Shown: positions 205 through 64,000, counted from the first letter of the stretch. The stretch is 64,000 nt of DNA from Paraspadella gotoi (GCA_051294375.1 CM119267.1:22073486-22137485), one strand, 5' to 3'. The notes: generated by a model from the letters alone, not told the origin. Made by a program: numbers and translations.

Positions 205-256
<52 letters not shown>

Positions 257-1890: not shown

Positions 1891-1978
<88 letters not shown>

Positions 1979-27878: not shown

Positions 27879-30800
27879 TCACTCGACGACGTAGACTATT
27901 TGTTTTCCCAAGTCCATCTTGGTTCCGTTTCCGGCGATGTTGACAGAGACCGTCTTTGTTTCCACGTCGATCGAGAGAGAATCTTTGAGATCCAAAAGGT
28001 TCAATGGCCTGGAGAATGAAAATTAAACTTTATATTTTTTTTATCCACTAATCAATATGTAGCATCAGACAATTACCCTAGCATGTCAGCGGGGTTGGGC
28101 ATGATTCTGGGGCCGAGTTTGGGATCCTTGTATCGATAGAACTTGAGTCTCTTTGGATCTTTGATCCCGCGTTCGATCCTCGCCATCCGTTTGGCGAGGG
28201 AGGCGGAAGAGTCGCCCTCCAGGACGGGAACGTCGAGGCCAAAGAGGCTGAGGACGGGGAAGGGGGCATAAGTACATCACAGTTGATTTCTTAATTTCAT
28301 TTTCTCATTCGCACTGTCGCTCTTATACTAATAAAAAAATATAAATAAAATAAACATCTCATTATTGATTAAATCTTGCTATATCGTACAAAGAGAGCAG
28401 TCGGGTTGAAAATGTAATATCATATCAATAAGTTAAGATCAGATGCGCCGACGTTTCCACATTACTGACCCCGATTTTGGTTGAATGTTGACGGCCCTGA
28501 GAATGACGGATGGTTCTGTCCTGAAGGCTATCAAAGGTTCCCCTGGACAACACTCTTCGCGGGTTTTGGCATCGGGCGCGGAGTCGCTGTAGGCGATCGT
28601 CACGCCCTCTAGCTCGAGGGTGGACGTCAAGTAAGAGATCATCTATCAAAGAAAAAGGGATGTTGCCTTAGTTATAAAAAGGATGAAGCTATAATACGAC
28701 TTTTTTTCGACTGACCTCTTCGAACAAAGTCTTCTCGTCAAAATCGAGAGTGACGTTCATGGCCTTCGGTCCCTCGGCGACGACCCGCTCTTTGACCCGG
28801 GTCACGAACGGCATCACTTTCTTCATCGCCTTCGCCAACTCGGCTTCGCCCTTCAGCTCAGTGAGGATGGCTTTATTGTCGGGCAAGGTCCCGTTGCCCG
28901 TCGCGTAGAGGGCGCTGAAAAAAAGGAAAAAATAGAAATTTACATAGATTTAAAACTTGGACGGTGACCTCAATCCCTAGATAGCAGCTTGTCCGAAGTT
29001 ATTGTTTGTTGAATGAACATGAAAACAAGGGCATGCCACCTCACTGGTGGCGCCGTTAATTCTGGAACGTAAGCCCTAGAGCTAGACCGAATTAACACCT
29101 TAATTGTCCCCCCGTTGGATCGACTACTTAGGCCTTATTACGTCTACAGTAGGAGCGCTACAGGAAAGACAGATTTATACCCAGGGACCGCGCGCGCACG
29201 TTAAGGGGCACGCGAATTTAGACTGCCGGGGTGCCTTTGAGAGAGGTTTGCTCGGAACCGAGCGCGGAAGCATCGGTGAGCAGGATGGCAGTTGGCTTTA
29301 CGTGGACAGCTACCCACTAATATCACGCAAGCCTTGCCTGGCCGGCCTCCCCGCACAGATCGGCCGAGATGGTACATGGCGATCGATGTTGACCCGAAAG
29401 AAGGGCCGTGGGGAGTGGAGACAGGGCTTGCTGCTTTAGCGGAGTTACGTTCCAAATACAAAGAGAGACCTTTTTCGATTATAAGGGATAGTCGATCAGA
29501 AAACAGGACAAAGTTGCTTGAAAAGGAAAAACGGAAAATGCCAAGTTTGAGGACGAGAAAAAGATTTGGAGAAGCAAGTTCCTATAATACGACGACAACT
29601 TGTTGCCAAATATGGTAATGTTGATGAATCAATGGTCGATTCAATGACGAGGACATAATATGTATTTTAAATCCCAATTATGCAAATTTTTCGAAAAATA
29701 TGCAAATGAGATCATTTGTCTTCTTTCGAACTAAAGTCTCGATCACAGCGCCCTCCATGGCTGATCTTTTGTTCGAAAATATAAGCCTCGAAAATGTTTT
29801 TGTTAAACTGTTGAAAGCACTAAAACTTATAGAAAATATTTATAATTCAATTGAAAAAAAAATTACCTCAGCTTTTGAAGAACGCAGGTCTGCCACGGAG
29901 GAAATGATTTCGCGACGTAAATGATTGCGTGAGTCGGTTTGGGAGGCGGTTCTCTTTTTCCCTTGGGAGGATTCTTGAGAGGTGAAAGGAGAGCGCATTT
30001 TATAAGGCTCGTTTATTTTTAATCGATGGTCCATACTTGACAATCATTCAAACGCTTTCAATTGACCTGCATCTTCTTCATTCGTATCCTGAAGTCGTGC
30101 GAGGTGTCGACGAGATGTTGCGAGGATCGGAGGATGATGTCGTCCACGACTCCAGCCTCTGGCCACGACGCCCCCATAATGCTAAAAATACAATCTCTCG
30201 TTTTAAAACTTAACAGCTTTTTAAAGAGCGCTAATAACTACAACCAACTTGCCTGTTCGCCAGCCCTTCCGATCCCGGCGTGCCCGGCAACAGATTCCGC
30301 CAGACGTGGTCGGAGAGATGCGGGCAAACGGGCGAAAGTAGAAGCAACTGCGTGCGGACGAATTGGAAGACGAGGTCCTCCCTCATGAACGAGTCCGTCG
30401 CTTGGCACATCTCCCGATATTTGTCGCGGGAGAGTTGGAGCTCGTAAAACCCAGTTCTGAGAGAGATATATATATATATATATATAAAATGCTTAAAATG
30501 AAATCGTTTAAAGATCTTTTCGTTTCGCATCGCCGCCAGCTTACCTGAGACCCTCCTTAAAGCACATCCCCTCAAAGGCGGCTTCCGTGTCAACGATGCT
30601 TCGGTTCATTTCGCTCTCGAAAACTTTGTCGTTGTAAGTCGACTCACCGCCTGGAGGCCAAAATAGGAAATAAAATTTGCGGGTCCCTTTCTGTAAAAAT
30701 CAACCCCGCCCTTCCAACCTTTCCTCAGCGTTCCTTCCTCCCACGCGGTCCTCATCTCCTTGACCCACTCAAGAAAGTTGTAGAGTCTCAAGATCCCCGC

Positions 30801-33800
30801 GTCGGCGACGATCTCCACAAAGTTGGCGTCCTCCACGGTGTCACCGGCGTCGGCGAGGGCGAGGCGCATCCCGTCGGCGGAGAACTTGGAGGCGGCGTCG
30901 CGGAGAGTCAAGAAGTTGCCCGTCGACTTGGACATCTTCTCCGAGTTGAGAAGAAGATGGCCGTTAGCGAAGACGCCCTTGGGCCACTTGTTGGCGGGGT
31001 CCTGGAGGAGTTCAAGGATGAAAGGACGGACAAATGTATGGAAAACGTAATAATTTCATCGGGAGCCAAAGGAGAACCACCCACTTCGGGCCACATCGCG
31101 ACGTGGTTGTAGAGAAAGTAAGTCAAATGATTTGGCACCAAATCCTTTCCCGATACCCGAAGATCCAACGGGTACCAAAAGGCGAACTCTCTTCGCAACG
31201 CTTCCAAAGCTGAATGCGGGATCTGAAAAAAGTTATTTAGTTTGATTTTATTATTATAACTCTTTATGTAATCTTTTATTTTCCATAATTTTGATTTTCA
31301 CCTCCGTCTTTGGCATCTTCGCCTCCTCGAAAAAAACAAAGTCCCAGACTTCGGGAGTCATTTGTTCTGGTCGGATCCCTAGTGGGCTCTGACCTTCGCC
31401 CTTGAGGTTGCCGTTGTCCAAAAGGTGAGCAACTGAAAATGAGAAATGATTTGGATTCATTTAAATTCGACCATTACCGCCACCTGTGTAATAATTTCCC
31501 TCACCGGTGTAATAGGCCATGTAAATGGTGGAATCGGACAAGGCCTCGATGACGTACTGCGGATCCCATGGCAGACGCGTTCCGAGTCCGAAGGACCTGG
31601 AGCAGGCGTGCTCGTGGAGCCACTCCAGCGTCGCCTCGAAGTTACGCCGAGTCTCATCGTGAAAAGTCCGCATTCCGTCGAGGTTCTTTTTGGCAGTCGA
31701 ACGCCATTCCGGCTCGCCGTAGTTCAAGTACCTGGAAACGGGCAAAGGCGAAGTAGGAGCTTGTTAATTTATTAAATTAATCACAAGGCCTGTATAGTGC
31801 TAAAAATATAAATATACCCACCACTGATCGCAAAGAGCGACGATGCACTCGTCGCCGGATCGAGACACGATTCTCTTTTCTGGTTCCATGTAGACGACGG
31901 CGTCGCCGGCTCCGATTAACGACGCCTTTAGCGCCGCCTTCACATCCTGGACCTTTTTGCCTGAGAAGGTAAACAGGGATGAACGGATATTAATAGAAAA
32001 AAGTGTGAAGATACTAACTTCATATCTTGTTATGCAGCAAACAAACTGATTTACGGATTTTGACTCATGCAAATTCATTCTCAAAATAAAAAGCCCGAAA
32101 AATACTTTAAATACAATTTGTTAAAATATTTGAATAAATAAAGTAAAATAAACATTACGGTGAGGTCGCACATGTTAGAAAAAAATCTGAACACAGGGCG
32201 AAAACCGTTCTTTAATTTTTTTTTCTTCAACCTCAATCCCTCATCAATTCCCTGTTTTAATTTCATTAACTAACTTTTGAATTATCTGTCTTTTTCGCGA
32301 ATTCAAGCAAAACTTTTATTTTTACCCTCGTATCCTTTAACCAGCATGACGCCTTCGTAGAATCCCAAGAGGTAAACTCGCTTCTTGGCCTCTTCCAGCT
32401 TCTCCTTGTCGTTCTGGCTGTTTATCTTCAACTAGTGGGCGGGTGAGCGTGAGGTGAAGTGGAGAAAGGGGCGGAGTGAAAAGCGAAATTAGATTCCTAA
32501 AACCACTGGCCCTCCTGGGTGGCTCTCAAAGAGATAGCTACTTCTGATCGCACCGCAAAGATTTCAACCGAATGACCAGTAAAATCTTTTAAAACTTAGC
32601 ATCGTAAACACATTAGCTGCGGTATTTTTTTTCTCCCTAGGTCCCTATCTCTTTAACCCGTAGAAAAAAAAACCTTTAACGCGTCGTCCGTTATCGCTCA
32701 ATGATAAGCACCCATACCACGCCAAAGATTTTTCGTTCCTTCCCTCTTCCAACCCTCGCCACTCCCCCCTCCCCCCCCCCCCGACTTGTTTAAATCTCAC
32801 ATCCAAGGATTCGAATTAAAAAAACATCCACTTGGTTTTACTGCGGGAGACGGAATTAATTTTCTTGATTCCTACCATCTTTTATCGCGATTAGAATCAA
32901 AAGGATTTTTTTTTCCAAATCTCATTCACGAAGGAAGGGGTGAAAGTGGTTGGGAAGGGGAGTAGCGAAAAACTTGGATCCCAATCACGAGCCAAAACGC
33001 GATTAGGAAAAAAAAATGAAAAAAAATGGGGGGGAAGAAACGTGAAACAAATAGGAAAAGGGAAAGAAAGGGAGGAGTTTTTTCCCCTTAATCCCAACCT
33101 CCGATAATTTTTTTTTATTCTTCGTAAATAAAAAAAAAATAAAATAGAACAAAAAATAGAACAAAATATACACACACAAAAAAAAAAAACCAAATCCACC
33201 AGCGGCCTGGAAAGCGTCGGATTTCGATATCATTTTCATGTTCTTTCGTTTAAAAACCATCGACGCAACGATTAACTTCCAACAGTTGACCAATATTTTT
33301 TGAATTGGCGCGCGATTTCTATCTCCTGCAAACCGCTAATCTAAATTATTCGACTTCATCACCAACAACCACGGAAGTCCCCACTATTTCGGCCGTGGAC
33401 TCTCACGGCCCGGCTCCAATCGCCAGAATCGCTGCCGCAGCCGCCTCCGCCGCCAGCGCCATCTCTACCGTCGCCATGGTGTTTCTGCAACTACTTATTC
33501 TTTTTTCGATTTTCACGGAGAAACCCAGTGAGCGATCGAAAACGACGACGGCGACAACGACTACGACTTTTCGTCAAAGACCTAAACTGCTGCACGCGCC
33601 TGACCCCGCCTTTGCGGTCGAGCGCGAGGAGGCCACGATAAAGGTGGGTCGCCCAATACGGTTAATTACAGTTATTCACGGTTAATTACGGTTATTCACG
33701 CAATTCCATAATAGTGTGAGCCTAATTATTAGTTGTAAGTTGCAAATAGTTGAAAAACGGTGACAACAAAATAAGGCCAGCAATTCGAATATCTTTGTGA

Positions 33801-36800
33801 TAATTCACGCCTCTGGTTTCAACTTGTATGTATTTTTATTGTTTGTATGTATTTACAGTTTGTATACTATGAATTACAACTGCCCTCTCGCAGTGCAGAG
33901 CGGAAGGAGTGGAGCGCTACTTCTGGAAAAAGGTCTCGCGCGTCAATCTAAAGGACGAGCCATTCGGGCGCACAAAAGGGCGCGTTCTGGTCGGTCCGCG
34001 ATTCTCGGTGCCGGGTAACGAAGAGGCGCCGCCAAGGACCAACGGTGACCTCGTCATCAACGACGTGAGACGCGACGACGCCGGATTCTACACTTGCTTC
34101 CCTACCAATCACTGGGGAAGCATCGCCGGTGAGTCGCGATTTACGAGTCTTAATTTCTTTCTCTTTCACGTTTCTCACGTTTAAAATCCTCCCACCTTTC
34201 TTTCTTATCCCTCTTAAGCCTCCACCAGATTAAAGGTCCGCCCAGCGTCTTCTCCTGACATAAAATGGCGACCGGACACGATGCTGACGGTGAAGGAGGG
34301 AGATTCGGCGCTGGTCAAGTGTCGAGTGCTGGGGTGGCCGAGACCCAAAATCAAGTGGCTCTATAGGTTAACTAATATCACGAGTCCAATATATCTCCCA
34401 CTTTTAACGCCACTTCAACCATATCTAAGATCGACGCCTTCCGACGCGGACCAGCTGGTTCAAGGGAGTGGCTACCGCGTCCTCTACGACGGACACCTGC
34501 GCATCGAATCGGCGCGACGCCACGACGCCGGCCTCTACAAGTGCGTCGCCATTAACAAGTACGGATCTGTGCTGGCCGAGGGGGCGTTGCGGGTCGTCAA
34601 CGGAGGAGGCGCGGTGGGCACGGGGACGAAAGCGATCGCGAGTCTAATTTGCTTCGCGCTTTTGTTAATATTGTGATCTCCGATTTTGTAAAATGATCGT
34701 TGACGTCAAATACACACTACGCAATAAACTTGGATGTTAATATTTGACCATGTCTTTTTACCAGCTCACCTGTTCGCAAACAGTGGGCGCGGCCAAATTC
34801 CCGAATCCGGGAACGTCGATGATGGGGACGGGCTCGAAGGGCAGCACCATCTCGTCTTTAATACTGAAGAGATTAGAGGAATAGGGAATTTAAATATTAC
34901 TTTCTGGCTTTTAAGGAGTATTTTATTACCATTGTCTCACCCACCTCCGTCTGCCCCTAACACCCGCCCGCTCACCCGTATTTCTCCCTAAAGGCGGCCT
35001 TGTTCTTAAGATCCCTCAGCGCCGCGAAATCGTCGGGCGAATCCGAGGGAACGGAGGTGACGACGCCGGTGCCTTTGTCCTCGCGGATGCTGAGCATCGG
35101 GAGAGTGAAGATGCGGGAGTAGTCGGTGAAGGGGGCGGAGATGGCCACGCCCAAAAGCGAAGAGCCTTAGGGGAAGAGAAATCGAGAAAGTGACTAAAAC
35201 AGATTTAGCAGAATAACTTGCGGTTAATTTCAAATGAGATTGAGTTCTTCAATCTCATTTGCATATTGTAGTAATTTAGATCATTTCTCGTATCTTTTGA
35301 TACGGTTTTCACCTTTACTATTTTATCAATACTTTTAATAAGGAAAGAGATAAAATGCGAAGAAATAAAATGCAGATCACGACACCTTTGATCTCGTCGA
35401 CGACGGGAATTTCTCCGTTGACGGGCGTGAAGCCTTGATAAGCCATATTTAGCGCGGCGCGTCGGGTGGCAATGAAAACCTCATTCTTTCGCGGTCCGAG
35501 ACAAGTTCGAAAAACGAGGTAAGTTATGTCCGGGTGGAGCCAGCAATTGGTCTGGCCGAACATCGTCTCGGGTCGGAGTGTCGCCGCCACCATGTAAAGG
35601 GACTCGTCTCCGACTTATGAGAAGAGAAGTTTAATTATCGTGGTGATTAATAACATTTTTTTTTAAATTTAATTACTACTTACTCTTCCCCTCCAACCCG
35701 GCCGGGTAAGGTCGATGGACTTTCATCTTAATGAGGGTGTACTCCTGCGGACCGACTCCCTCGCCCGAGGATCTATCGTGATCCATGCATGGCTGTTTGT
35801 CCAAAGGACTGAAGATGGTGTAGCGTTTTCCAAAGTCGATTTTTCCGCGCTCCCTCAACCTGATGAAAACGGGTAAGTTAATACGCCGATAATCTAACTC
35901 AGCCCGTTTTAAACCTCCCGCGGAAAGGCAGACACCTGTAAAACTGCCACCTCACGAAGGAATCGTAAAACTTGTTGACGTCGGTGGTGATGAAGGATCG
36001 ACGCCAATCGACTTTGACGCCCATCGATCGCAGATCCGTTTTGGCTTCCGGTGGGAAGAATCCTAACCAGTGGAGAGGTTCGGAGAAGGCGGGGATCTCG
36101 GAGGCTGAGAAGCCCATCTTCTCCATAATCTGCCATTGATATCGGGCTGTGCCTGGTTATAAGAGATTAAAAGGGTGAGGTTGAATCGAGAGAAGAAAAG
36201 TAGGAAGAGAAAAGAAGAGAAGAGAAGAGAAGAGAAGAGAAGAGAAGAGAAGAGAAGAGACGAGAAGAGAAAAGAAAAATGAGACTCATAACTTAACTAA
36301 TAATAATAATGACATTATTATTATGTTTATTATTATTATTATTAGTTAAGTTATGGGTCTCATTTTTCTTTTCTCTTAATAATGACCCCCACAGTCTCAC
36401 CGGATTTGGCGGCAGCTTTGCTCTTTTTTCCTTTCGCCTTATTTTCGATCTTGATCTCTTTTACTTCCTCTTCCTTAGTCTCCTCTTCCTCCTCCGCGGG
36501 AAAGACGGGAGGATTTCCAAACTCTTCCATCTCTCGCTTCAACTTGTCCGCGCAGGCCTGAGATGACCAAAAGAAATCCCATTCTCATTCTTTAATTTTA
36601 AATAAACAAACCAATTCCGTCCTCTATTAGATTTTTATGCTTTGCCTTTGTAGCCTTCAGCATTTTGTTTTACGTTAGCCAGCTTTTTGACACAAATTAG
36701 GATAAAGCGCGACTCTAATAAACAAAAGACGTTTTACCAGATCGTAGCCGCACCTTGATGGGCATTCCAGTGCAATGGAACCCGAAAGGCCAGAGACAGG

Positions 36801-37164
36801 TTTTTCCTTTGAGCCTTTGATAGCCCATAGCGAACTCGCATTTGGAGAGTGTGAACGTGTGACCCAAATGGAGCTGTCCGTTCATGTACGGGTAAGGAAA
36901 GCAGGTGAAGAACTTGTCTGTACGACACGGGAAAAGAGGAAACAAGAAACAAGTTACCGACTTGAAATGGATTTTTATCCGTCAAAGCTATCGATTCGTC
37001 ACGTCTCCACAAAAAAGCCAAGACCCACCCTTTTTGTCGATCTTCGTGCCGTCCTTGGGGGCGTTGGCCTCGAAGAGTCTCTCCTCTTCCCAAAGTCTCT
37101 GCATTCGCTTCTCGATGTCGACCAACGCCGTCACCTTCGCCGTTCCCTTTCGCTCCAACGCCAT
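27879..37164 (-). CDS. LARS1: Cytoplasmic leucyl-tRNA synthetase
   Basis: [10 protein letters not shown] start; [14 protein letters not shown] (HIGH); [10 protein letters not shown]; [11 protein letters not shown]; [17 protein letters not shown]; [14 protein letters not shown]; [16 protein letters not shown]; LCDQW; [10 protein letters not shown]; KMSKSTGNF (KMSKS). About 20 exons, ending QIVYVVE*. Confidence 0.97.
29035..29465 (+). mobile_element. Possible degenerate retroelement fragment in a LARS1 intron
   Basis: GC-rich island of ~430 bp in an AT-rich intron, matching no LARS1 exon. Broken ORFs; no diagnostic motif. Confidence 0.25.
33476..34676 (+). CDS. Two-Ig-domain cell-surface protein (signal peptide plus probable GPI signal), nested antisense in a LARS1 intron
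   Basis: Exons 33476-33643, 33894-34128, 34219-34366, 34430-34676 are in frame. C..W..DAGFYTC and [25 protein letters not shown]-set motifs; hydrophobic C-terminus [14 protein letters not shown]; AATAAA at 34723. Confidence 0.88.
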
Positions 37165-37793: not shown

Positions 37794-38859
37794 TTAGCAA
37801 CAATTGTTGTCGACTTTGGACGCTTGGCGGAGATCAGCGTCGCGCAAAGTCAAGGAGGTCGTCGTCGGGGACCGCTTGACTAGACGGGCGTCGTGGAGGG
37901 AAGCGGCGACGCTGGCGAACATCTGCGAGACGCCCTGACCGGTTTTAGAGGAAGTGAAGAAAGTCTCTTCGATGCCGGGTTCGTTGCCCACCTTTTTTTC
38001 GAAAGGAGAAAACAAAGAAAATTCTCGAGTCTCTCGATATTTGTTTTTTATTGATAAAACCGAGGTCCAGCGGCGAAGCGCATGTGTCTCTCACTTGAAG
38101 ACAAAACTCGCGGAGGTCGTCTTTCGAAATCTCGTCCTCGGGACCGTCGTTGGACTGAAAAGCAAATTAGTAGGTTTCACATTTAAGAAATAAGGTGGTG
38201 ATTAAGATAACAAGTTCCGATCCCGATTCGCTCCCACCTTCAAATCATCCTTGGTGAGGCAAAGGAAGATCTTGACACCCGGCGGCGCGTGGACGACGAC
38301 CTCGAGGAGATGGTGGGGAAGGGAGGACAGGGTGGAGCGGTTGACCTTGTCGCAGACGAGGATCGCCGCCGCCGTGTGTTTGTAATAATTGGATGTGATG
38401 GTGGCCACGCGTTCCATACCTTTTAGATGTCAGGAAATATAGGGAACGAGGGGGGGTGAGTTTTCTCTGCTCAATCTGGACGGTCATCGAGAAAAAGTGA
38501 GTTAGCCTAACCTCCGGTGTCCCACAAATCCAAGGCGACGGAATCTCCCGGAGGAAATTCGTATTTTTTTGAAAAGTGATCGAGGCCGATCGTAGAGGAC
38601 GGACCCGTCTGTTAAATAGACCGGGAGAAAAGGGGTGCAAGGGAGTAAATGAGAAAAGGGCATGAAAAGGAACACAAAGAGGAAAAAAAAAGGAGAAAAA
38701 TTAGTAGTTGTCCGAACAAAAAATTAAATTAGTTAAAAAACCCCAAAGAAAACTCGCCTTGGTTGTGAAAGAGTCGGTGGAAAATCGTCGAAAAAGTGAA
38801 CTCTTTCCGGCTCCATATTCGCCGCACAGAATAACTTTGGCCGAGTAGGGGACTTGCAT
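37794..38859 (-). CDS. Rab-family small GTPase, RabX6-like
   Basis: KVILCGEYGAGKSSL (G1), STIGLDHF (G2), LWDTGGMERVA (G3 variant recalled from insect RabX6), LTKDD (G4), TSSK (G5), C-terminal CC*. Five exons. Confidence 0.85.
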
Positions 38860-39386: not shown

Positions 39387-40806
39387 TCAAAATGAGATCA
39401 AGTCGTCGACAAAAACGGTGTCGCCGACCTGGACGGAGGCGACGTCTCTAGATCGATCGTACGCCTCTCTGATTTGTCGACCCAACGAGTCATGAAGCTC
39501 CCGGAAACGAGGGACGCGAAATCGTCGGACGTCGGCGACTTGTTTCCGGTCGCTGGAAAAGGATTCGTCGACGGTGTCAAAGTTGAAAGTCGAGGAAGGT
39601 TGTTTTTCGGCGGCATCGATGGTCGAAAGGGATTCGGCGCCATCGTAAAACCTAGAGCTCCCTCTATCTTTTTTAGCCGGCAACTCTGGAATGGAGCACG
39701 CGCCACCTTCGCCGAAAACAGGCATGCCGAAAACATCCAACGCGGCTCCGCCGTCGACGGCCAGGGTCACCGAGGTTGCCATGGAAACGGAATACACGTC
39801 GCGAAAATCGTAGAGGTTTTGGGTGAGGAAATGTCTCAGCGGTTGAGGGCACGGAGGGACGAGGTTCAGGACCACAGACCTAAAAATACTTTCCAGTTTA
39901 CTTACGTACGCGAGTGTCAAAGCTAAAACCCGCATCGTAAAATCCGCGGCAAAAGTGTTTTCTTTGACTATCTCTGCGTTAATCTGACTCTGTTTGAGTT
40001 GATCTCTCACCGCAAATACTCCTGCAATTCGTTCCGACGACGAAGAATGAAAGCTGGGTCGTGGTTGTGAAAAAGTCGCTTCGGGGGAAGTTGTAGAAGA
40101 CCCGAGTCACCGATCGAAAACATGGACTGCAATCTACGATGATGACGGAGCGACACAAAGCGTAAGATGTTAATAAGTGAAAAGTTTGTATGTATTATAT
40201 TTGAGGTTCAGCTCACCCAGAGAAACTATTTAATTTTAATCAAATTGAGATTTACATCATTAGCTCGAGTAGAGGGCGGGAAAGGGTGGACGAGAGCGGG
40301 CAATGGCCGGAACGGGCAAGCGATGACGGTTAATTTCATTATCCAACATTTAGAGGCAAAATGGTTTTATTATTATTTATTAATTATCCAACATTAAAAT
40401 TGGTGTATACAATAAATAATAATCAATAAATAAGCGAACCATTTAAGAATAATAAATAAATGAGCAAACGCTTAATATAATGTTTTATTTGTATACAAAT
40501 TAACACTCAAAACGAATAAGAGTCCGATGACAAATCTCCACGAAAATTTTTTTCATATATGGAAATTCACGATCTACTTTTCAGTCCCCAATCTACCCTC
40601 CAACTTTCACACTCCCTGTCCCAAATCCACTACCTCGCTCACCTGTCGTGGAGATCTTTGAAGTCGTTGTACCTCCGTGCCACCCGCCATGTTTGTCCCC
40701 CAGGCAGCGCCACCTCGATAACGTAAAAGGTGACGTCCCGGCGAGAATTGGCGTCCACGATAGAGACGGCGCGCTCGTTCAAGTTTTTCAGCGAAACCTC
40801 GTTCAT
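39387..40806 (-). CDS. PX-domain protein resembling the nischarin N-terminus (no LRRs)
   Basis: Exons ~40806-40643, 40132-40011, 39878-39387: TFYVIEV...WRVARRYNDFKDLHDRL...LPPKRLFHNHDPAFILRRRNELQEYL...PQPLRHFL. Confidence 0.7.
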
Positions 40807-51901: not shown

Positions 51902-52574
51902 CTACTTGGCACCCTCGACGGTCCGTTGTTGCTCTTGCATCTTTTGGATTTTAAGCTGGAGAGTTTCGTCGACCTTTTGCTTGGCCAACACCTTCTGTTT
52001 GAGGTAGCCCTGGATCGTCTCCATCTGTTTCCCGATAAAGTCGATCTTTCTCTGGAAATACTCGGCAGCCTCCTTTCGATCTTTCTGCACGAAGTAGCCG
52101 GTTCCAATGTCGAGGAGGAGGCAATCGGGGTCCTTGAGTTTGCCGGGAACGTAGAGGGAGCTGGTCATGGGTACCATGATTTCGTGGCCTGGAATTAAAA
52201 AAAGAAGCGTTTGGTTATCTCCACAAAAATATCTCGTTTCATTCGGTGTAGTTTATTTATCAAGCGACTTGCCGTCGTCGATGTTGTCGCTCAACTTGGC
52301 CACACTCTGGAGGGATTCCTGAAATTTGACGGTAGCGATTCTCAGCTGCTGCATAGACGTCGTGAAAAGTTCAAGTTCTCCCTGCAGCTGATCCTTCAAT
52401 TGCGACAACTGCATGACGTTTAACGACGCTATCTCAATCATTTGTTGACCCGCCTGAGGGGAAAATGAGCGGGGAGAATCAGTAGATTTAAAATTTAGTA
52501 ATATAAATGATTGAATAAGTTTAAAAGCATGTTATAATTTCGCAATTCACCTCGTTTTTTTTAATTTCCGCCAT
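51902..52574 (-). CDS. PFDN5: Prefoldin subunit 5
   Basis: LNVMQLSQLKDQL; IMVPMTSSLYVPGKL; LLDIGTGYFVQK; three exons. Confidence 0.95.
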
Positions 52575-52747
52575 TGTTCGAACGACCAACGTTTCACAAT
52601 ATCTGAGAGACTATTTATGCAAGAAAAAAACGCATAAAAATAAAAAGGATAAAAATGATTAGAATCGAAGGGAATGGGCCGATGAATGGAGTATGCAAGT
52701 ATGATGGAATTAAAACAGAACGGGAACGAGAGACAAAGTGAAATAAA

Positions 52748-54077
52748 TCACATTTTTTCGTAGGTGAGAACGTGGTGACAAGTTTTGCAAGTCTTCCTAT
52801 ACTCGTCGGCGTCCTCGTCGTACTCTTCTTCGCCGTACTCGTGCTGATGAGGACCCAAGTCTTTAGTGAAGAGAGAGGACCTCACCTTCCTCCTCAGTTC
52901 CTTCACTTTTTTGTCGAATTTCTTTTGTCGAGTCTTTTGTCTCGCTTCGTCGCGTTGGTCGTGTTTCGACTCCAGCGCCTCTTCAGAGCCGTGAACCTCC
53001 ATCGCGCGGTCATAGACCTTCATTACATTGTAATTGAGCGCAATAACTAATCAATCAAATTAAAATTAAAACGCACATCAGTGCTCCCTAACCTGCGAAT
53101 GAAGAAAAAGCTTCATATCGCCCCATCTGGAGTTGTGAGGATTCTTCCGCAAGATGAACCGAAGCGGCGGCTCGCGGACGTCGAAGTCTTCGTCCTTAAG
53201 AAGGTATTCGTTTTTGGAGTCGGTCTTCGTGATCAGACGGTGAGCGTCTTCGTTGTCTAAGAACATTCAATTTTAAAATATTATAATATTTAAGTATAAA
53301 AAAACTTTAGCAGTATTCAAAATTAACTAGTAACCTCGGCACGCATCGCACACGTGGCAGTCGAAATGCTCGAGCAGAAAGGAGTCTACGAATGGTTTGC
53401 CGCATTCGCTGCAGCGGATCTTGTCGTCGGTCGGCAAATGATCTTGCAAGATGGCCCCGGGTTTTTTCTTCAATTCTTGGCTCGACTAAAATAAAATTCA
53501 ATACTACTGAGTTTTACACTCATTCACTCAGACATTGACATTGAAATATGATAGGATTTTCCCCCCTCACCTCATCCTCTTCCTCCCCTCCCTCTTCCTC
53601 CTCGATCAAAAACCCGCCTCCGCTGTCGACGATCCGGCTGATCTTCTCGGCGATTTTGGCGCCGGAGAAACCAGACTCGGCGCTTCCATTCGGCAACGTC
53701 GGCATCTTAGCTAGGCGCGCCTGCTTGAGCAGAAGCGCTCTCTGCCTATTCCGCTCGATCTTTGCGCGTTGAGCGTCGGAGAGTCGCGGCTGCGCGGGTT
53801 CCGGCTTTATCTCGATCACATTGTCAGCACCGGACGACGTTGCCGCAACTTCGGCGGCGCTCCCAACCCCCTCGTCGTCGTCCGATTTGGGTTCGACTTT
53901 GGCATCGATCAGTGGCGCCGCGTCGCCAGAGAATCTGGACAAAGATCCTCGTTTAGAGCGGAACTTGTCCAACAGAGTCGATTTGATCTGAGAAGGTTTC
54001 GAAGATTTCGGCGGGGAGACGTCCGAGTCGTCATCGTCCACTTCTTCATTCAGACGGCGTCGAGATGTTTTATTCAT
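52748..54077 (-). CDS. XPA: DNA repair protein XPA
   Basis: [11 protein letters not shown]; [12 protein letters not shown]; CSEC...CDAC zinc finger; [15 protein letters not shown]; [14 protein letters not shown]; CKTC...YEKM*; four exons. Confidence 0.96.
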
Positions 54078-54219
54078 AATTCATCGCTATTTAAGCTACG
54101 ATAAAACGGATAAAAAATAAACAATGTATTGGCGTAAAACCCGCTATATAAACCAACGTTATGTTGAAGAAAAAACAATCACATTGCTATCACAGTGCAC
54201 GAAATTGTATCGATCTTTT

Positions 54220-56597
54220 TCACCAACGAACATTCTTCTCCAACATGCCAGCGAGGGTTGTCGACAACACGTAGGGAATCAAGCACATGAGGAACCCGTC
54301 CAAGGGGCGCAAAATGCTTCGGATGGCCTTCACGGCGGCTTGGAGCCCATACCGGTCAGGCACGCGACCCGACGGCCCGTTAATGATCCCGGTCTTGGCG
54401 AGGAACTGAAGCAACCCCGGGTCTTTCGCGTCAACGATGGGATAATAAGGAGAATCGGGGAAGCGCTCCCAGTATCGCCCCTCGTGATGAGAAGAGTTGG
54501 TGAAGCGGAAGCGATGAAGAGTGGCGCGGAGGTAGCGAGGGGGTTTGTCGAGAAAAGGGTAAGAGTCGCGGTCCAGGAGATCTAACACTTCCGGTTGGTT
54601 GATGAGGATGCGATACATCAGGTTGCGGAACCACTGGTTGTGTTGATAGGAACTAGCGGATTTTTAAAACGGGAGGATAAACGAGGAAGATATACAAAGC
54701 AGAGAATAAAATATACAAGATTTTCAGTAGACTACGATCTGGTTAAACCCACTTACCCTAGAGCGGCGAACCACATCTGCCAATCCAGCCTAGGTTGATG
54801 GGGCGCCACCCAAGGCGGCCTTCGCATGGCATTTCCCGGTTTGTAAGGGAATTCGATTTCGCGCCATCGCGTTTTCTCAGAAACGCGCTCTTCGTTTGTT
54901 CCCTCTATCACGACTTCCGGCCGGCCCTCCACGCCCGTCATGCGCCTGAAGAGGCCGTAGGAAGAAGCGAGATGGAAGGGCGCCGTGCGCGAGTGAAGGC
55001 GACGAAGGGCCGACGGGACGACGTGGTTAGCGCGGTCGTCGACGACCGCATGGGGAACGAGGGAGACGCTGAAGAGGGTGGCGGCCAAGAAGCAGTGACA
55101 GAGAATCTTAAAACGAGGAAAAGGGAGGGGGGGGAGAGAATTGGAAAAAGAGAATTTCTTACGATCGTCAATGACGATCAGGCAGCAGCAAAAATCTTAC
55201 CGTAATAATGGAGAAGACCCGTGTCGATTTCCTCAACATTCCTCGAGAAACAGATACATCGGTTCCCTGTCTCCTCGCCGCTCTCCGGCGACCGTCGACG
55301 CCTCCATCTCTGCCACTCCTTTCTATTTCCTCGCTACCTTTCCCAGACGCCACTCCGCGAGTCGCCTTATAAATCTCAGTCGCCAACGAGGCCACGCCCA
55401 TCAAGACGGAGAAGGGAATCGCCGACCTGAGCGTCGCTAAGAAATCGGGTTGTCCGAAGTTGATTTGGGAATCGACGATCGGAAAGATCGAGTCGGGCGA
55501 AGGAAACTTCAAGCGCAGACGGAAGAACTTGATGGTGTAGGCGAGAAGGAGAGAGTAGACGGCGACAGAGGCGTATGGGTGGAAGATGGGACGGAGGGTG
55601 GCAGACATGCGGGTGAAGAAGCCAGGCGTATTCTCGACCTTTTTCTTTTTTCCCTTGCCGAAAAACTCGTCGTCGAGCAGCGACAGGCAGAGGGTCATCG
55701 TCAGCAGGTTAAAAAAGTTATAGTTGCCCGTGAGGAAGATGGCGACTTGAAGAAACATCTGACACCAAAAGGCGAAGAGGCGAAGGTTGCGTACGGGGAG
55801 AAAGAAGAGAAAAGGAACTGCGATCTCGATAAAGTAGGTGATTACGACGCTGAGACGCTGAAACCACTCCGGGAGTTGATGGGACCACCAAGCCAAAGGC
55901 GTAGGGATACACTGGGTTTCATAGTGGTAGTTGAGGGCAGTCAGGGACCACCAGGTCGGGCAGAGACTCGTCAGCTTGACGACGCCGGAAGCGAACATGA
56001 GGCGGAAAAGAAGCCAGCGTAAGAGCCAAAAGAAAACGGGAGATTCGGCCGGAATGTGAGTGGGCGCAGGGGCGCGAAAAACGAAGTAGTGAGGAGCGGC
56101 GAACATGGTTAAAAAGCCGGCCTCGAGCAACAGGATGTCCCATTGGAACCAGAGGAAGACTTGGCCAGCTTGGAAGACGGAAAAGTAAAGGATCCAGAGT
56201 GAGAGGTAGCTGGCTTTTGACCGTCGGATAGGCGGTATCACTATGTTCATGACGGCCAAGACTATGCCCACGAGACAGAGCAGCTCGAGGCAGGTCGAGG
56301 GGTCGAGGCCAACTTGGGTCAAGGCGGCCACCATGGCGGGGTAGGCGCTGCGTCGGAAATAAAGACAGAATGAGAATGAATAGACAAATGGAAAAAGTCA
56401 TTTCCGCTCGTAACTTACTCGTCTTGACCGGAAGCTTTGGCGCGAATACCTTGCACCCTCATGAACAAATGCGCCGGCAGGACGCCATTGGGTCCGTAAA
56501 GCCCGGGGATTTGATGATAGAGGGAGGCGAAAGCGAACAAATAAATGATCGATATGCAATAAAGGTAGAAGTCCAGGACGTAAGCGATGGAGCCCAT
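54220..56597 (-). CDS. LMF2: Lipase maturation factor 2
   Basis: [14 protein letters not shown]; [16 protein letters not shown]; [16 protein letters not shown]; [10 protein letters not shown]; [11 protein letters not shown]; [17 protein letters not shown]. Confidence 0.93.
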
Positions 56598-56840
56598 TCT
56601 TTATCCTTTCGGAATATTACGACAGCTACGAATTGCCAAATAAAAAAAAGTGGCGGATTGAGTTGTTTTGAGATCCTTTTTATTCAGGACGAAAAAGGTT
56701 CGCATTCAGTCCTTTTTTTTATAGAGCATAAAAACTTTGAACAATCGTAGTTTTCCGTTGTTTTAATTGTTTTTTTTTTTTAACGAGTTAATAAATAAAT
56801 AGTAACAAAAAAATCCCTAACAATTAACGAGATGTTCGAG

Positions 56841-59800
56841 TCAAGAGGCGGTAAGTTCGACGGGAAAATCGTCCAGGTAATGTCGACTTCCGACGATGGA
56901 AGTGGAGACGAGCGGAATTCCGAAGAGAGTCTGAGAGGTGGCGTCGGCGACGTCGACGACGACGTAGGATCCAGGCTGAGGGACGGATTCCACTTCGCCC
57001 GCCTCGTCGGGAATCGGAACCTGGGGTGGCGGGGAAATGAAAATAAAATTAAATTAATTATATGATTTTTTAAAAATATTATTGACTTAAAAACATTTAT
57101 AAATGATATGCATATCGTGATATGTTATGATAATCTCATTTGAGCTTCCTAAACGTCTAAAGACCGAATTACAACTTACCCGCGGAAAAACGACTTTAGT
57201 AAATCCGTCGTTTCGCCCGACGAGGGCGTCGGCGGAACGCTTGCTTCTTCCTTCGACGAGAACCAAATGCTTCTCTCCGATTTGTCCGCGATTGATCTGA
57301 GGTGAAAATCCAAATTACTTTACACATAAGACACATGAAATTGGTACAACAAATATGTATTGAGTGTTAATTAATAATTATGTAAGAAATGACAAAGTCG
57401 CTAACCTTAAGACTCTCTTCGCGATATGCGGCCGTAAGTTCAAGATGACGTCTTTTCTTAACTTCTTCCGACACATCGTCGTTGAGCCTATTTAAAATAG
57501 GAAATGTTTTACTATCAACCATAATACGTAGCTAATAAACATTAGAGTGTGGCGGTATATTCACACCGCCTCATGTCCACCATCCTTCAGCCAAATCCAT
57601 TGGCTCAGAGGGGGAACACACCATCCCAGGCGTAGTGTTCCATCCACAGTCCTAACGACTTCCCTCTGCGTTGGCAAAACGAGACCGTCCTAGGGTAACC
57701 GCGCCAGTCACTGAGGGTCGGAAGCCCCCAAAGCCAACAGTGAGATGCCCCATCCCAATGGGCATCACAGGCAACCCGGCTGTTGCCATAAGAGAATAAT
57801 AAAAAAATTTTCTGCCTGGACTAGGACCTGCGATGCGCTCCGGTCTTCTCCCGCATCGAATAGGGAAACGTAAAGCAAAACGAATAACCGACTCGTTTTA
57901 TGAGATCGACCGTTTCGAGGTGCGCGGCTTCCGTCTCGCCGCAAAAACCGGCGATGAAGTCAGACGAGAGACTTTGGGGAAGAAAGAAAAAGAATTTACC
58001 GTTACTTTCTTAAAGTCCGAATCATTATCTTTTTCCTAAAAAGCACTCGATACACACACACCTGACGTCCGGAATCTTCCGTCGAATATCCTCCACCAGC
58101 CGCAGATACGCGTCCCTGGTGTAGCCGCGTCGCATGTTCTCCAAGACCTTGTCGTTGCCACTTTGCGCAGGAAGGTGGATGTAATTGCAGACGTTGTCCC
58201 GCTCCTGGATGATGTCGAGGAGTTCTGCCGGAAAATCCTTGGGGTGAGGGGATGTGAAGCGGACGCGCATCTCGGGGTCGACGGCGGAGACTTGATCGAG
58301 AAGATCGGCGAAGCGGAGTCCGCCTCGTTTCGGTTTGTAGACTGGATAAAGGTAAAACTGTTTACTATTACGTAATGCTGTAATGCATTACACACAATTT
58401 CACTTAACATGAAGCGAAATTAAAAGTCGTGCTACCAGTGTCCAGATCAAAAATGGTGAATATTTTAAAATAAAATTAAACTGAAAATCAATGACTACAT
58501 TCTCCTCTCACCGGTCCGGAACCCGTCGTTACTGAGCCTCGTCAAATCTGTCGTCGGCCCCGACGTTTCCCCAACGTCTCGATAGCTGTTGACGTTCTGA
58601 CCAAGGAGAGTGACCTCTTTGACGCCGCGGTCGCGCAGCGCCTTCACCTCCTCGACGATGGAGGCGATGGGCCTGCTACGCTCGCGACCCCTCGTAAAGG
58701 GCACGATGCAGTAGGAGCACATGTTGTCGCAACCGCGCATGATGGAGACAAAGGCTGAGATGCCGGTCTCGTCGAGTCGGACAGGCATCACGTCCGCATA
58801 AGTCTCGTCGAGGGAGAGGAGTACGTTGATGCCCGCGTGGCCGGAAGGGATTGAGGCCAGCATGCGGGGCAGGTCGCGGTAGGCGTCGGGGCCGCAGACC
58901 TGAGATAGACAAAAAAAAAGATATATTTGGGTGATAAGTTTATAAATAAAATTAGAAATGTATATGTTACATAACTATTAAATAGTGATTTTTTTGCTTA
59001 ATTTTGCTCCGATTAATTACAGTAAAAGTTTATTATTAAAGCTCGTATAATTTTTTTTAAAGACAAATTGTCGGGAAGAAACTTTCGTGAAGATTCATCA
59101 TCGGACTTTTATTCATTTGAATATTAATTCATTGACATTTCACCACGTGTCTATTCATTTATTATTCATTGATTGATATTTATTATTCAATGTCTTTCCT
59201 TTCCTTTCACAAGAATAATTAAAGTAATAAACTAGCAATTATGACAATTAAATCATTAATTATGTAGCTATTAATTGAACCACAAATAAACATGATAATT
59301 TACTAATGTAAAATATTAGTGATAATCCTTTCGTTTGTTGTTTGAAATAGACTAAAGGAAAAACGAAATAATAATATTAAACTTTTAAGGTAATAGAATA
59401 AAAATTTATCAAAGCTTAATCAGAATACGACAATATGCAAATGAGATTGAGGAACTCAATCTCATTTCAGACAATTCACAAATTAATCTGCTACATCATG
59501 AGTTATTAATGATTATAGGAGAGGTGTTGGGTTACTGATAGGTTATGTGGTTCATGATCATTGTGTTTCTCTTCTGATCTATTACAGTGTAGATTCCAGG
59601 ATGCACTGTCAATGCACGGCCGCCCGTGATCAATCATTCCCTGGTTGGAACGAGACATTCTGCCACGCCTTGACTTTTAGTGACACTCCTTTGGTCACTC
59701 CACACTCATCATTACCCGTTAGGGGGTACGCAGGATTCGCCCCCTAACAAAATGAACTCCCACTCCCTTACCACGTCAACGATTTTGGTCTCCTCCACAA

Positions 59801-60468
59801 GTCGAGTCTTGAGACGCTCGGCCATGCAGCCGAGCACGCCGAGCTGAAGGTCAGGCCTACTGCGCTTGAGTTTCTCCAGCGCCGACAAGCGCTTCCAGAT
59901 TTTTTGCTCGGCGCCTTCGCGGATGGCGCAGGTGACCACGAATATAACGTCCGCCGACGACGCCGAGTCTGTTTTGACGTAACCGTTGTCTCTGAGAATG
60001 GACCTGGACATGAGATATTAAATTCCGTTTATTTTTAAAATTCGCGCAGATTTAAATTTAAAGACAAATTTGGACTCTGATAATCTTTTAACTTTAAAAA
60101 AAAAAAAGTTATAAAGCATCATACTCGTTTTTCACTCACCAAACTATCTCCGTGTCGCTGACGTTCATCTGACATCCGTAAGTCTCGAGGTAAACTCTGC
60201 GTCCGTTGCCATGGTAGCTAGAGCGATCAAGGTAAGGAACAGCGGTGGAGGATATAGACAATGAGTCAGTTTCGAGAGAAGTAGATGGAGATTTGTTCGC
60301 GAGGAAATACTCGAGCGAAGGTCCGTCCTTAACTTTCGAAAAGTCGATGATCCTCTTCGCAGATTCGACACTCGTCTCGCTACGCCACCTTTTTCTCCAG
60401 GTCGTCCAAGCGCCATAGTTGCCGCTTCGGAGAAAGTTTCGGCCGAGTCTTGACAATGTTCGAGACAT
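56841..60468 (-). CDS. CDK5RAP1: Mitochondrial tRNA methylthiotransferase (MiaB family)
   Basis: [13 protein letters not shown]; TCAIRE; LGCMAERL; radical-SAM CDNMCSYC; LLGQNVNSY; RFTSPHPKD; HLPAQSG; C-terminal TRAM domain. Confidence 0.95.
57548..57790 (+). mobile_element. Solo-LTR-like repeat, copy 3 (243 bp, perfect AGAG TSD)
   Basis: AGAG|TGTGGC...GCCATA|AGAG; nearly identical to 25340-25595 apart from a short internal deletion. Confidence 0.85.
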
Positions 60469-60567
60469 CTCGCGGCTAACTCAGTTACTGCGTTTAGTAT
60501 TCTTAGTTACTAGTTAGTAAAACAACCGCAAAGAATAAATAAACGCGAATCGAATAAATAAACGTCG

Positions 60568-61234
60568 CTAACGGGTCAAAATTTCAAGAACCTCCGTCAC
60601 CAAGTTGTCCCTGTTTCCGGTGGTGACATCGAAGAGGACCACGTCCTTTCTTCTCCTCACCGCCTCCACGAATGGAATCGGCTTTCGACTCTGAATCGGT
60701 AGAGTAGCGACGACGACCGTGTTCGAAGAGTCCAACAGTCTCCTCACGGCGCCTTCAAAATTTCGGGAAAACAATTCCATTTTGCCGATTTCGTCGACGA
60801 TGACGATGCCGTCTGACGTTGCGGCGCCGCTCGAAGCGAGACGCGGTAGAGCGGCGCTTTCGAAGGACGCCACGTCGACGACGTAACGTCCGACGCGCGG
60901 TCGACGATCGGACGGGGAATCGTCTCCGAGGCGGGCGAGGGGAGAGGGAAGACCTCGATGCCAAAAACGGGGCAAAATTTGGGTCGAAACATTTTAGCGC
61001 GCGCATAAATTAATTTCGCTCTCTAACAAAACCTGATGGTAATGGGACAACGTCGAATCCGATTCGCTTACCGCCCCCCTCTCGCTCTCTCCTCTCGATG
61101 GTGTAAAAGCCTGACAAGTTAATCGACTTTTCTTTTAAACGATCGCAGATTTTGCGAACGAGAGTCGTTTTTCCTATTCCGGGAGGACCAGTTAATGCCA
61201 CGTGCCTTTTGGCGTGGACGGTCGAGGCGGCCAT
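60568..61234 (-). CDS. NTPCR: Cancer-related nucleoside triphosphatase (THEP1 family)
   Basis: LTGPPGIGKTTL; GFYT; RIGFDVV; VGRYVVD; VDEIGKMELFS; two exons. Confidence 0.93.
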
Positions 61235-61321
61235 CTTTGCTTTAGAATAATCGAAAGCTCATAAGAACGGCGAATAAAATTAACAGTTTGATGCACGAGG
61301 TAAAATTAAATTATCTGAATA

Positions 61322-62368
61322 TCATCCGGTGTCCGCAAATTTCACTTCCTCCTCCTCCTCCTCCTTAACTTCCTTCTCCCTACTCTTCTCTCGCCTCTCG
61401 ATCTCCGCGTCCACCTTCACCAAATACTCGAGCATCTTTTCCTCGTAGACTTCCGGGCAAGTGACGGCGTGCTTGGCGTGTGGACTGTCAAGAAATTGGA
61501 CACTCTCCACATCCATGCCCATGTCGTTCTTCCAATAAGTCGCGATTCGAGCGAAACGATCCGCGTCGATGAATTCGTCCGCGTCGGAGAAAAAGTTGAG
61601 CGTCGGGACTCGCGCCGGACGATGGATGAAGGCGTCGATGTAGGAGTCCATAAATTCGAGGAAAGTCGGCGACATCGAATAGTATCCGTTGATGACGGCC
61701 GACAGGGGTGAACGAAAGACGGGCGAGACGGTCGACTTGAGGAGGGCCTCCACCATGATCGGCAGGCCTTCCTTGGCCGAGCCAACGTAGATTGGACTGT
61801 CGAAGACTTGGCCGACAATTAGATCTTTGTAAAAGGGCAAGTGGGTATGCCTGGGAAAAAATATAAATGAAATTAACGATGTATGCACTATACAGGTAAT
61901 CGTGAAATTGTGAAATCAAAATACTTGTAGACAATAACAACTGCAATCTTTCTAATTTCAGCCGAATATAAATATTATACGTAATTACATGGGATTTTCG
62001 CTCGGTTCGTCCTTCTTGAGTTGAATAGCGTGGAGGAAACATCCGATGGAAATTCCATGGATGAGAAGATGATCTTTAGCAGGATCGAGGGCTTCTCGAA
62101 GCATCATCCGACTTCCCGAGACCGTGTATATACCCTTGACGGCTGAGGCAAAGTCGAGAGGCCTTCCCCGCAGCAGCACCACGTTGAGGGGTCGCTCCGT
62201 CCTACGATAATGCTGCTCGTAAAAACGCAAATATTTTTCGTCGTGCTTCGGTTGGCATCCCACAAAAGGGAGAAAAAAGAGAGTCACTGGACGCGATAGT
62301 TGGGGAACGGGCCAAGTAGAAGACAAAAGGTCTAGGCGTCGCGAGAGTTTAGCGAGTTGAAACGACAT
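61322..62368 (-). CDS. TMEM53/DUF829-like alpha/beta-fold protein
   Basis: FVGCQPKHDEKY; LLIHGISIG; IVGQVFDSP; PTLNFFSDAD; FLDSPHAKH; two exons. Confidence 0.7.
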
Positions 62369-62689
62369 TCCCGCTAAGTGAGCTCGTTAAGCCTGAACGG
62401 TGAATCAAATAACAGTAATAAATTCATTGATTTATTTAAAAAGAATTTTTCGTCCCGCGAACGTCGACACGATTACGAAGATGAAATTTAACGAATGTAA
62501 ATTGTAGAAAAAATTAACGAATTACCAAAAACCTGGTAAAAATATAGAAAAAATTTGGCGGAAAAAACACGAATTAAAAAATTCGAAGAGAACTCAAAGA
62601 AACACAGGACACTCGCCTGTGAGAAATAAACTAATCTACGCCCACGTAACAATAACAATAAATAAATAAATTATCGCGCAACGATCGTA

Positions 62690-64000
62690 TCACAGGTAAA
62701 ACAACTTGTGCGCCAACTCCAATGACGGATCCTTATGAATGGATTGCCCGACCAAAAAGGCCAGCTTGTGGGCATATTGGCAAGGGGCGGGAACGCGAAC
62801 TGTCCCCGGCCAATTATAGTAGAGGTGGGTAAGCTTGAAAGTGAGACGTTGGATGTGGTCCGGCTTGAGGCCAGTGTTGTCCCAAATGACGTTGTAGGAG
62901 GTGGGAGTGACGGTCCCCTGGCGGACGGCTTGGGAAACGACGAAGAAGTCGTACCACTCGGGCTTAGTAACGGCCGAGTCAATGATGGTGCCCGGCGGCG
63001 GATTAGATAATTTGCCTCCGGCATCTCGAGAGATGAAACGCTGGTTGATCCTCTTCTTGACGACGATGCAGGCCCACTTGGGATTGTAATCAGCGGAAAA
63101 GGCTTTGAAGGAGCTCATGACCTGGGCGACTTCGTAACGGGAGACGGTTTCCAGCTGTCCGTCGGAAACGCCGTCGCGGTAAAAGATGATTCTCTCGGGC
63201 AACTCCCCTTCGTTCATCTCTTTCCACTCCTTAAGCGCGGCCATCATGCAGGTCTTCAAACCGTCGGCCAGCTCCATGTGCGTGTGCTGGCGAGTGGGGC
63301 GCGAGTAGTAGCGCGTGAGAGTGCGATTCATGGAGGCGACGAAGCCACCGATTGACTGACCCTTGGCGCTACTGTCGTGATGGCTGTCGAATCCGACGAC
63401 CATGACGCGTTTAAGAGGCATGTCCAGCGCCCAAATGTCGCCGCCCATTTTGGCGTTCATCTGCACGGCGATCTTGGTGGAGACCGACATCAGCATTTGC
63501 TGCTTGGAAAGCGTGCGGGCAACCACGCACTGCGACGGAACGGGCACGTCCACGCAGCAGAGCTTCTTTATAGCGTCGTAGCGATCCTTGCGATTGTTAG
63601 GCAAAACCGCGACGACGATGCTCACTTGTTCGCGACACGCTTCACGAATTGCGGAGCAATACGTCTCCGTTCGGTCGTCGTTGAGTTCGACGGCTTTGGC
63701 CGCCGAAAACTCCATCCCCATTGGCGGGGCTACACGGGCCAATGTAGACATGAAATTATGGGCGACGGCAGAATCGCGCTTCGTAAACACCATCGTCCAC
63801 GAGCGCAGAGGCATCGGCGTGAGCAGCTTCACTCCGCGCATCTCTTTCGCCCATTCCGCGTCCTGCGGTTTGTGCGCCGCGAGCTCCCTCTGTTGGTAAA
63901 TCTTTTCCCCGGGCAACTGGCGACCTTGAATCTCAAGAAGGCTTTTGTCGAAATTGATGCCCCACCTGTTGAGCTGCGATTTGGCAGAGTCGTTGCCGCC
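62690..64000 (-). CDS. PIWI-clade Argonaute (MID + PIWI domains; 5' end outside the window)
   Basis: RYDAIKKLCC; PSQCV; KIAVQMNAKMGG; VVGFD (catalytic D); YRDGV (D); KKRINQRF; VSQAVRQGTVTPT; HLYYNWPGTVRVPAPCQYAHKLA (H); LFYL* end. Confidence 0.96.
   Translation of the reverse strand, partial: GGNDSAKSQLNRWGINFDKSLLEIQGRQLPGEKIYQQRELAAHKPQDAEWAKEMRGVKLLTPMPLRSWTMVFTKRDSAVAHNFMSTLARVAPPMGMEFSAAKAVELNDDRTETYCSAIREACREQVSIVVAVLPNNRKDRYDAIKKLCCVDVPVPSQCVVARTLSKQQMLMSVSTKIAVQMNAKMGGDIWALDMPLKRVMVVGFDSHHDSSAKGQSIGGFVASMNRTLTRYYSRPTRQHTHMELADGLKTCMMAALKEWKEMNEGELPERIIFYRDGVSDGQLETVSRYEVAQVMSSFKAFSADYNPKWACIVVKKRINQRFISRDAGGKLSNPPPGTIIDSAVTKPEWYDFFVVSQAVRQGTVTPTSYNVIWDNTGLKPDHIQRLTFKLTHLYYNWPGTVRVPAPCQYAHKLAFLVGQSIHKDPSLELAHKLFYL

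Follow-up and report, generated by a model that had tools for sequence, protein, structure and literature searches.

A minus-strand array of 15 genes in Paraspadella gotoi that probably represents one to a few spliced-leader-resolved operons

The 64,000-nucleotide (nt) stretch of Paraspadella gotoi DNA described here, which we refer to throughout as the window, contains 15 genes that lie head-to-tail on the minus strand between positions 27879 and 64000, from a PIWI gene to a gene that we take to be LARS1. We put at roughly three in four the probability that these genes constitute one to a few operons, built around a core of seven or more genes, whose polycistronic RNA is resolved by trans-splicing of a spliced leader (SL). 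This reading draws on the phylum, for which SL trans-splicing and operons have been published, on spliced RNA contigs that bridge 8 of the 14 spacers between the genes, and on SL sequence carried by the RPL6 contigs of relatives. The block PIWI-TMEM53-NTPCR-CDK5RAP1-LMF2-XPA-PFDN5 is the best-supported part of the array.

Layout of the gene array

Each of the 14 genes that follow PIWI, TMEM53 to LARS1, yielded a minus-strand exon model free of internal stops, and together these models contain 57 introns; PIWI itself is represented by an open frame of 436 codons that leaves the window at position 64000. Coding sequence makes up 54% of positions 27879-64000, and the window is intron-bearing animal sequence with a CpG observed/expected ratio above 1 in 29 of its 32 bins. 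The names TMEM53, CDK5RAP1, PFDN5, FBXO31, FDX2, PNPLA8 and LARS1 go beyond the domain evidence and are in part our presumption. The features of the array, with lengths in amino acids (aa), are as follows.

62690-64000, minus: PIWI-like 1, C-terminal 436 codons, gene start upstream of the window (Pfam Piwi; PIWIL1 homologs)
61322-62368, minus: TMEM53-like (DUF829), name presumed, 302 aa, 2 exons (Pfam, exon model)
60568-61234, minus: NTPCR-like NTPase, 195 aa, 2 exons (Pfam NTPase_1, exon model)
56841-60468, minus: CDK5RAP1-like radical-SAM protein, name presumed, 583 aa, 8 exons (UPF0004 and Radical_SAM, exon model)
54220-56597, minus: LMF2, 702 aa, 4 exons (Pfam, named LMF2 homologs, exon model)
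52748-54077, minus: XPA, 363 aa, 4 exons (Pfam XPA_C 3e-24, exon model)
51902-52574, minus: prefoldin subunit, presumably PFDN5, 163 aa, 3 exons (Pfam, exon model)
51685-64000, minus: span of the spliced RNA contig X1 record 3, seven genes and six whole spacers (low end computed)
51569-51589, minus: candidate trans-splice acceptor before RPL6, predicted only, score 11.3 (best-scoring unpaired acceptor)
50506-51510, minus: RPL6, taxonomic marker, 246 aa, 4 exons (Pfam, homologs, tree, exon model)
46994-50216, minus: FBXO31-like F-box protein, name presumed, 618 aa, 7 exons (F-box and Cyclin_D1_bind, exon model)
45676-46404, minus: 2Fe-2S ferredoxin, FDX2-like, name presumed, 196 aa, 2 exons (Fer2 E 0.002, below the Pfam cut-off; exon model)
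44746-45415, minus: RING/B-box protein, 188 aa, 2 exons (zf-B_box; weak RING; exon model)
41215-44198, minus: patatin phospholipase, PNPLA8-like, name presumed, 845 aa, 3 exons (Pfam, exon model)
39387-40806, minus: PX-domain, sorting-nexin-like (SNX) protein, 259 aa, 3 exons (PX E 0.004, below the cut-off; exon model)
37794-38859, minus: Rab-like small GTPase, 212 aa, 5 exons (Pfam Ras family, exon model, RNA joints)
27879-37164, minus: class I tRNA synthetase, presumably the leucyl enzyme LARS1, 1196 aa, 22 exons (Pfam, exon model)
33476-34676, plus: Ig-domain gene, N-terminus hydrophobic, nested within a 2.3-kb LARS1 intron in antisense orientation, outside the array (Pfam)

This layout reproduces the 15 tightly packed, co-directional genes of the original prediction, and recomputation returned the same lengths for all 14 stop-to-ATG spacers, which from PIWI to LARS1 measure 321, 87, 99, 243, 142, 173, 391, 289, 589, 260, 547, 408, 527 and 629 nt. 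Five of these are shorter than 250 nt, which places the six consecutive genes from TMEM53 to PFDN5 within the published operon criterion for P. gotoi (gaps <250 bp; PMC12460157); for the remaining nine, whose lengths are likewise from stop to ATG, the gap under that criterion depends on where the untranslated regions (UTRs) end.

The same-strand run extends beyond the array to a total of 18 identifiable genes, the additional three being NOX, a gene with an RRM domain and TRPM. The earlier count of 19, with four downstream genes, included as a separate gene the frame at 6467-6871, which has no ATG ahead of its acceptor, joins in frame the TRPM exon that ends at 7331, and is the last TRPM exon. 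Pfam returned no match for two further frames at around 14.4-15.1 kb, and a 19th gene might thus exist. The three downstream genes stand behind longer spacers (946 nt after LARS1, and ~1 kb or more after NOX and after the RRM gene) and are without support as members of the array, of which LARS1 is likely the last gene; an X1 record ends at 27722.

Under a coin-flip model of strand choice with 21,072 genes per genome, the same-strand runs expected by chance in a genome number 0.64 for at least 15 genes, 0.08 for at least 18 and 0.04 for at least 19, so that the figure of 4e-6 attached earlier to the run applies to one window and not to the genome. Because 0.64 runs of at least 15 genes are expected genome-wide, the strand run is weak evidence when taken alone, and it is the short spacers together with the RNA bridging that carry weight.

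RNA contigs across the spacers

The RNA evidence consists of the assembled contigs of one public run (X1), which holds 67% of the sampled words of the window and which we take to be spliced RNA because its joints sit at predicted GT-AG and GC-AG introns. The contig pieces seen from this run amount to 16 of 952 and 8 of 98, and absences among them prove nothing. A second run (X2, share 0.12) contributed short pieces only, at a depth of 2-6, and is not counted as support.

Spliced X1 contigs bridge 8 of the 14 spacers. Record 3, with a length of 11,605 nt, runs from PIWI to PFDN5 with the introns out and the spacers retained, and continues for 2,070 nt beyond the window; its listed pieces are unbroken across PIWI-TMEM53, TMEM53-NTPCR and LMF2-XPA. 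Removal of all introns from 64000-53571, with the five spacers between PIWI and XPA kept, predicts 8068 nt, and the corresponding length in record 3 is 8068 nt. A test of bin depth was made on record 3, which spans 19 bins; three that contain repeats and one with partial coverage were omitted, so that 15 entered the comparison. The observed depth of the XPA-PFDN5 bin was 194.4, with predictions of 193.3 if the spacer is present and 123.0 if it is not, and that of the RPL6-FBXO31 bin (record 2) was 942, with predictions of 942.1 and 693.4, respectively. The PNPLA8-SNX spacer is bridged by a single piece, 40643-42743. Three intron-containing bins fit the intron-free depth prediction to 0.1, so that DNA does not account for the bridging. 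Differences in depth along the array (1771 at an RPL6 joint vs 267 in the upstream block, and 23 in the bin past LARS1) were given no weight, since the depth of contigs is no basis for ranking genes.

Contigs of this kind might also be obtained from independent genes in a compact region, each with its own promoter, often within the last exon or 3'UTR of the gene upstream, and maybe with trans-splicing of its own outron, if the assembler merges their overlapping ends. Contigs cannot separate such overlap from a single molecule; runs of at least 15 genes have the chance expectation given above; the short spacers offer weak acceptors of the cis type; and many trans-spliced chaetognath genes are non-operonic, in that 10,197 of the 21,072 genes of P. 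gotoi are reported as trans-spliced vs 18% as operonic (PMC12460157). Independent genes would nevertheless have to overlap at their ends at 8 of the 14 junctions, including six in a row, and the 87- and 99-nt spacers would have to contain or share both UTRs. The same phylum, moreover, has in Spadella cephaloptera an RPS14-PCNA operon with 3 nt from poly(A) site to acceptor, for which re-initiation is excluded according to its authors (PMC2481426). We regard independent transcription of the 15 genes as improbable.

Some additional features of the RNA may be recorded here. Completion of PIWI beyond position 64000, by comparison with the 863-aa PIWI of a relative, would need ~1,280 nt of the 2,070 nt by which record 3 overhangs the window, and the remainder could accommodate a long UTR or a portion of a further gene. 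Over 50510-51130, both X1 and X2 also contain a divergent second RPL6 sequence, likewise spliced, which represents a paralog or another organism. Five of the 57 modelled introns are of the GC-AG type (in PFDN5, RPL6, FDX2, Rab and LARS1), and two of these are listed as GC-ended RNA joints; GC-AG introns usually make up ~1% of the total in animals, a share well below that found here.

Phylum placement and spliced-leader evidence

On one marker, RPL6, the window likely falls in Chaetognatha. The full-length protein is 81% identical to that of Spadella cephaloptera vs 51-61% to those of 14 named animals of other phyla, and a tree (FastTree, 35 rows) gives support of 99 to the branch that separates the window and Spadella from other phyla. 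A search with RPL6 exon 2 returned 17 matches at 83-90% identity, the one named match among them being Spadella cephaloptera, while named animals of other phyla reached at most 74% (this leaves aside two Glycine rows, which were 81% identical over 56% of the query). The best named matches to PIWI had 59-60% identity, and the PIWI tree (81 rows, made up of the query plus 80 out of 120 matches) yielded no placement; the LMF2 search returned no close relative, its best matches being at 45-63%.

Chaetognath leaders are 36 nt long and have been published for both main orders (PMC2481426), and the SL genes are reported to be located in the 5S cluster (PMC2566580). That the organism performs SL trans-splicing is supported at the level of the phylum. 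Two of the 53 loci fetched with chaetognath-type RPL6 (L001 and L002) are 89-91% identical to the query. The RPL6 contig of L002 (1015 nt) opens with 26 nt from the 3' end of SL2.0, after which comes a UTR of 58 nt, and that of L001 (1040 nt) opens with the last 11 nt of SL sequence. An N-terminus resembling a translated leader was present in 3 of 240 scanned proteins, all of them chaetognath-type RPL6, with two close resemblances and one loose. The candidate acceptor before the window RPL6 would leave a 5'UTR of 59 nt, which may be compared with the 58 nt after the SL in L002. The contigs of the relatives show that the gene family is trans-spliced, and do not imply operon membership of the copy in the window. 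A 20-nt SL2 piece had no match in the window at up to 3 mismatches, in a search that covered SL2 only, and an Rfam scan of the window gave 8 weak matches, all below the gathering score, with no SL RNA family among them.

Anatomy of the spacers

The hexamer AATAAA is present in 7 of the 14 spacers and absent from 7, including 4 of the 5 shortest. Acceptors were scored with a matrix derived from the cis-introns of the window, whereas the rules for trans-splice sites may differ; on this scale the best score was at least 8 in 6 of the 14 spacers, and the five shortest had best scores of 1.1-2.6, the median for real introns being 7.4. When the 14 spacers were pooled, the observed acceptor score was reached by 17 of 300 shuffles, and the scan neither confirms nor excludes trans-splice sites in the spacers.

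The motif TATTTATT, which was picked by eye, occurs 10 times in the 14 spacers vs 0.7 expected (0 of 500 shuffles); it might act as an AU-rich element of 3'UTRs or as a signal for processing. Enrichment of TTTATT extends to introns as well as spacers. The PNPLA8-SNX spacer also contains an open frame of 38 codons (40803-40919, minus strand) whose end coincides with the start codon of SNX.

The weakness of the acceptors and the absence of AATAAA from most of the shortest spacers might mean that the PIWI-PFDN5 block persists mainly as a stable, fully cis-spliced polycistronic mRNA, which is resolved slowly or in some cells only. The 11.6-kb contig with its six whole spacers, and the lack of an intron contig in three bins, would be compatible with such an RNA, and unresolved dicistronic cDNAs are described from Ciona (PMC1488885). 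On the other hand, 13 of the 14 spacers carry ATGs upstream of the start codon. De Bruijn assemblers drop rare intron-retaining paths and keep rare unbranched links, a behavior that alone can produce the pattern of bridging. The RPL6 contigs of relatives are also of monocistronic size (909-1328 nt where given, and 1040 and 1015 nt for L001 and L002), and the PIWI contig of a relative measures 3329 nt. A stable polycistronic mRNA appears very improbable to us.

A model for expression of the array, and its difficulties

If the array is resolved as one to a few operons, RNA polymerase II would initiate at or upstream of PIWI, possibly from a single promoter, and read through the block; the cis-introns would then be excised from the polycistronic RNA. 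The 36-nt leader of a separate SL RNA would be joined to an AG shortly 5' of each downstream ATG, bringing a cap with it, and the upstream 3' ends would be formed at or near the acceptor. We propose that contigs cross the spacers because leftovers of this RNA, already cis-spliced and still to be resolved, would persist.

Several observations weigh against such a model. All of the spacer bridging comes from one run, and a contig across two genes proves no single molecule, overlapping UTRs being identical in appearance. Acceptors of the cis type score poorly in the five shortest spacers. The SL on RPL6 is no proof of operon membership, because ribosomal-protein mRNAs are reported to be trans-spliced as a class in Spadella (PMC2481426), and the RPL6 sequences of L001 and L002, 83-85% identical to that of the window, may belong to another paralog. 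No SL was found on the RNA of the array itself among the loose contig ends seen (12 of 265 and 6 of 24), in contigs that drop short tips. Finally, no bridging was present among the listed contig pieces at the six spacers PFDN5-RPL6, FBXO31-FDX2, FDX2-RING, RING-PNPLA8, SNX-Rab and Rab-LARS1; two X1 records leave a gap at 44265-44311 in RING-PNPLA8, and a record stops at 37243 in Rab-LARS1. These six are possible breaks between units, and are not evidence of breaks, because few pieces are listed and holes prove nothing.

The original prediction of one or a few long polycistronic units is thus supported in so far as it concerns operon-type transcription resolved by an SL, to which the phylum, the eight bridged spacers and the leaders of the relatives all point; this support does not extend to all 15 genes on one transcript, given the six spacers at which no bridging was seen. 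We consider it unlikely that the 15 genes form a single transcript. It is similarly doubtful that they, possibly with more genes upstream of PIWI, make up one SL-resolved unit of more than 36 kb, from which multi-gene RNAs that are fully cis-spliced and still await trans-splicing accumulate; such a unit would be the longest animal operon in the literature that we found.

Other features of the window

Copies of an interspersed repeat, 94-98% identical, lie at 57546-57820, 25338-25600 and 2382-2513, within introns of CDK5RAP1 and NOX among other places, and the X1 depth of the repeat's bin is 19,405. In the 20 direct-repeat families listed, of 22 in all, copies that are interspersed lie in introns or outside the array, with none in the spacers. 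The end of TRPM (6467-7795, minus) appears to encode a coiled-coil-like stretch and then a cysteine cluster split by the last intron, the last exon being without a Pfam match. In the RRM gene (17800-18000, minus), the Gly/Tyr-rich tail and the RRM ahead of it are in different frames, through a frameshift, an intron that was missed or an error of assembly. Positions 1-3100 hold direct and inverted near-identical pieces of a TIR gene around three N gaps, for which a recent duplication or a local problem of assembly is the likely cause.

Relationship to known operons and significance

The closest comparison is with the operons of other chaetognaths, which share with the array the phylum (by RPL6), co-directional housekeeping genes that include a ribosomal protein, and long same-strand runs. 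In a bacterial artificial chromosome of Spadella, 18 of the 22 rows in the part of the table concerned are plus, three that are minus being transposon proteins and one having no strand given (PMC2481426). The array differs in its 15 genes and in having no proteasome subunit. The longest operon reported for P. gotoi has nine genes, and no operon-specific leader is reported there (PMC12460157).

Among the tunicates, Ciona has operons without intercistronic DNA, and these resemble the array in their frequent lack of an upstream AATAAA (16 of 18 cases in Ciona vs 7 of 14 spacers here) and in that unresolved dicistronic RNA is detectable (PMC1488885). Absence of AATAAA is reported for Oikopleura operons as well. 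Tunicate operons, unlike the array, are mostly of two genes and at most 11, with a single SL (PMC4122922), and the maximum for Ciona by SLOPPR is seven genes (PMC7986045). Macrostomum lignano likewise has SL-resolved clusters of conserved genes, with a reported maximum of nine (PMC8629364).

The SL2-type operons of C. elegans have short spacers, co-directional genes and resolution by trans-splicing in common with the array. They differ in their dedicated SL2 and intercistronic regions of ~100 nt, the chaetognaths being described as without an operon-specific leader. A canonical poly(A) signal precedes each intercistronic region in operons of the C. elegans type, whereas here AATAAA is missing from half of the spacers.

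Our literature search, with most subscription journals outside its coverage, found no animal operon of more than 11 genes. The seven-gene core is within the known range of operon size, and only a single 15-gene unit would be a record; the locus may already be in the published P. gotoi operon table as one or more operons. The surprise is reduced because operons hold 18% of the genes in a chaetognath, and as an instance of a chaetognath operon the array is to be expected. Its interest is rather as a test locus, with seven genes in one spliced contig and with AATAAA absent from most of the intervening spacers, which measure 87-321 nt. Whether trans-splicing itself makes the upstream 3' end, a question described as open for Ciona (PMC1488885), is testable at this locus. 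Should the 15 genes prove to be one unit, the known size of animal operons would be raised, and this would suggest that the 250-bp rule undercounts operons.

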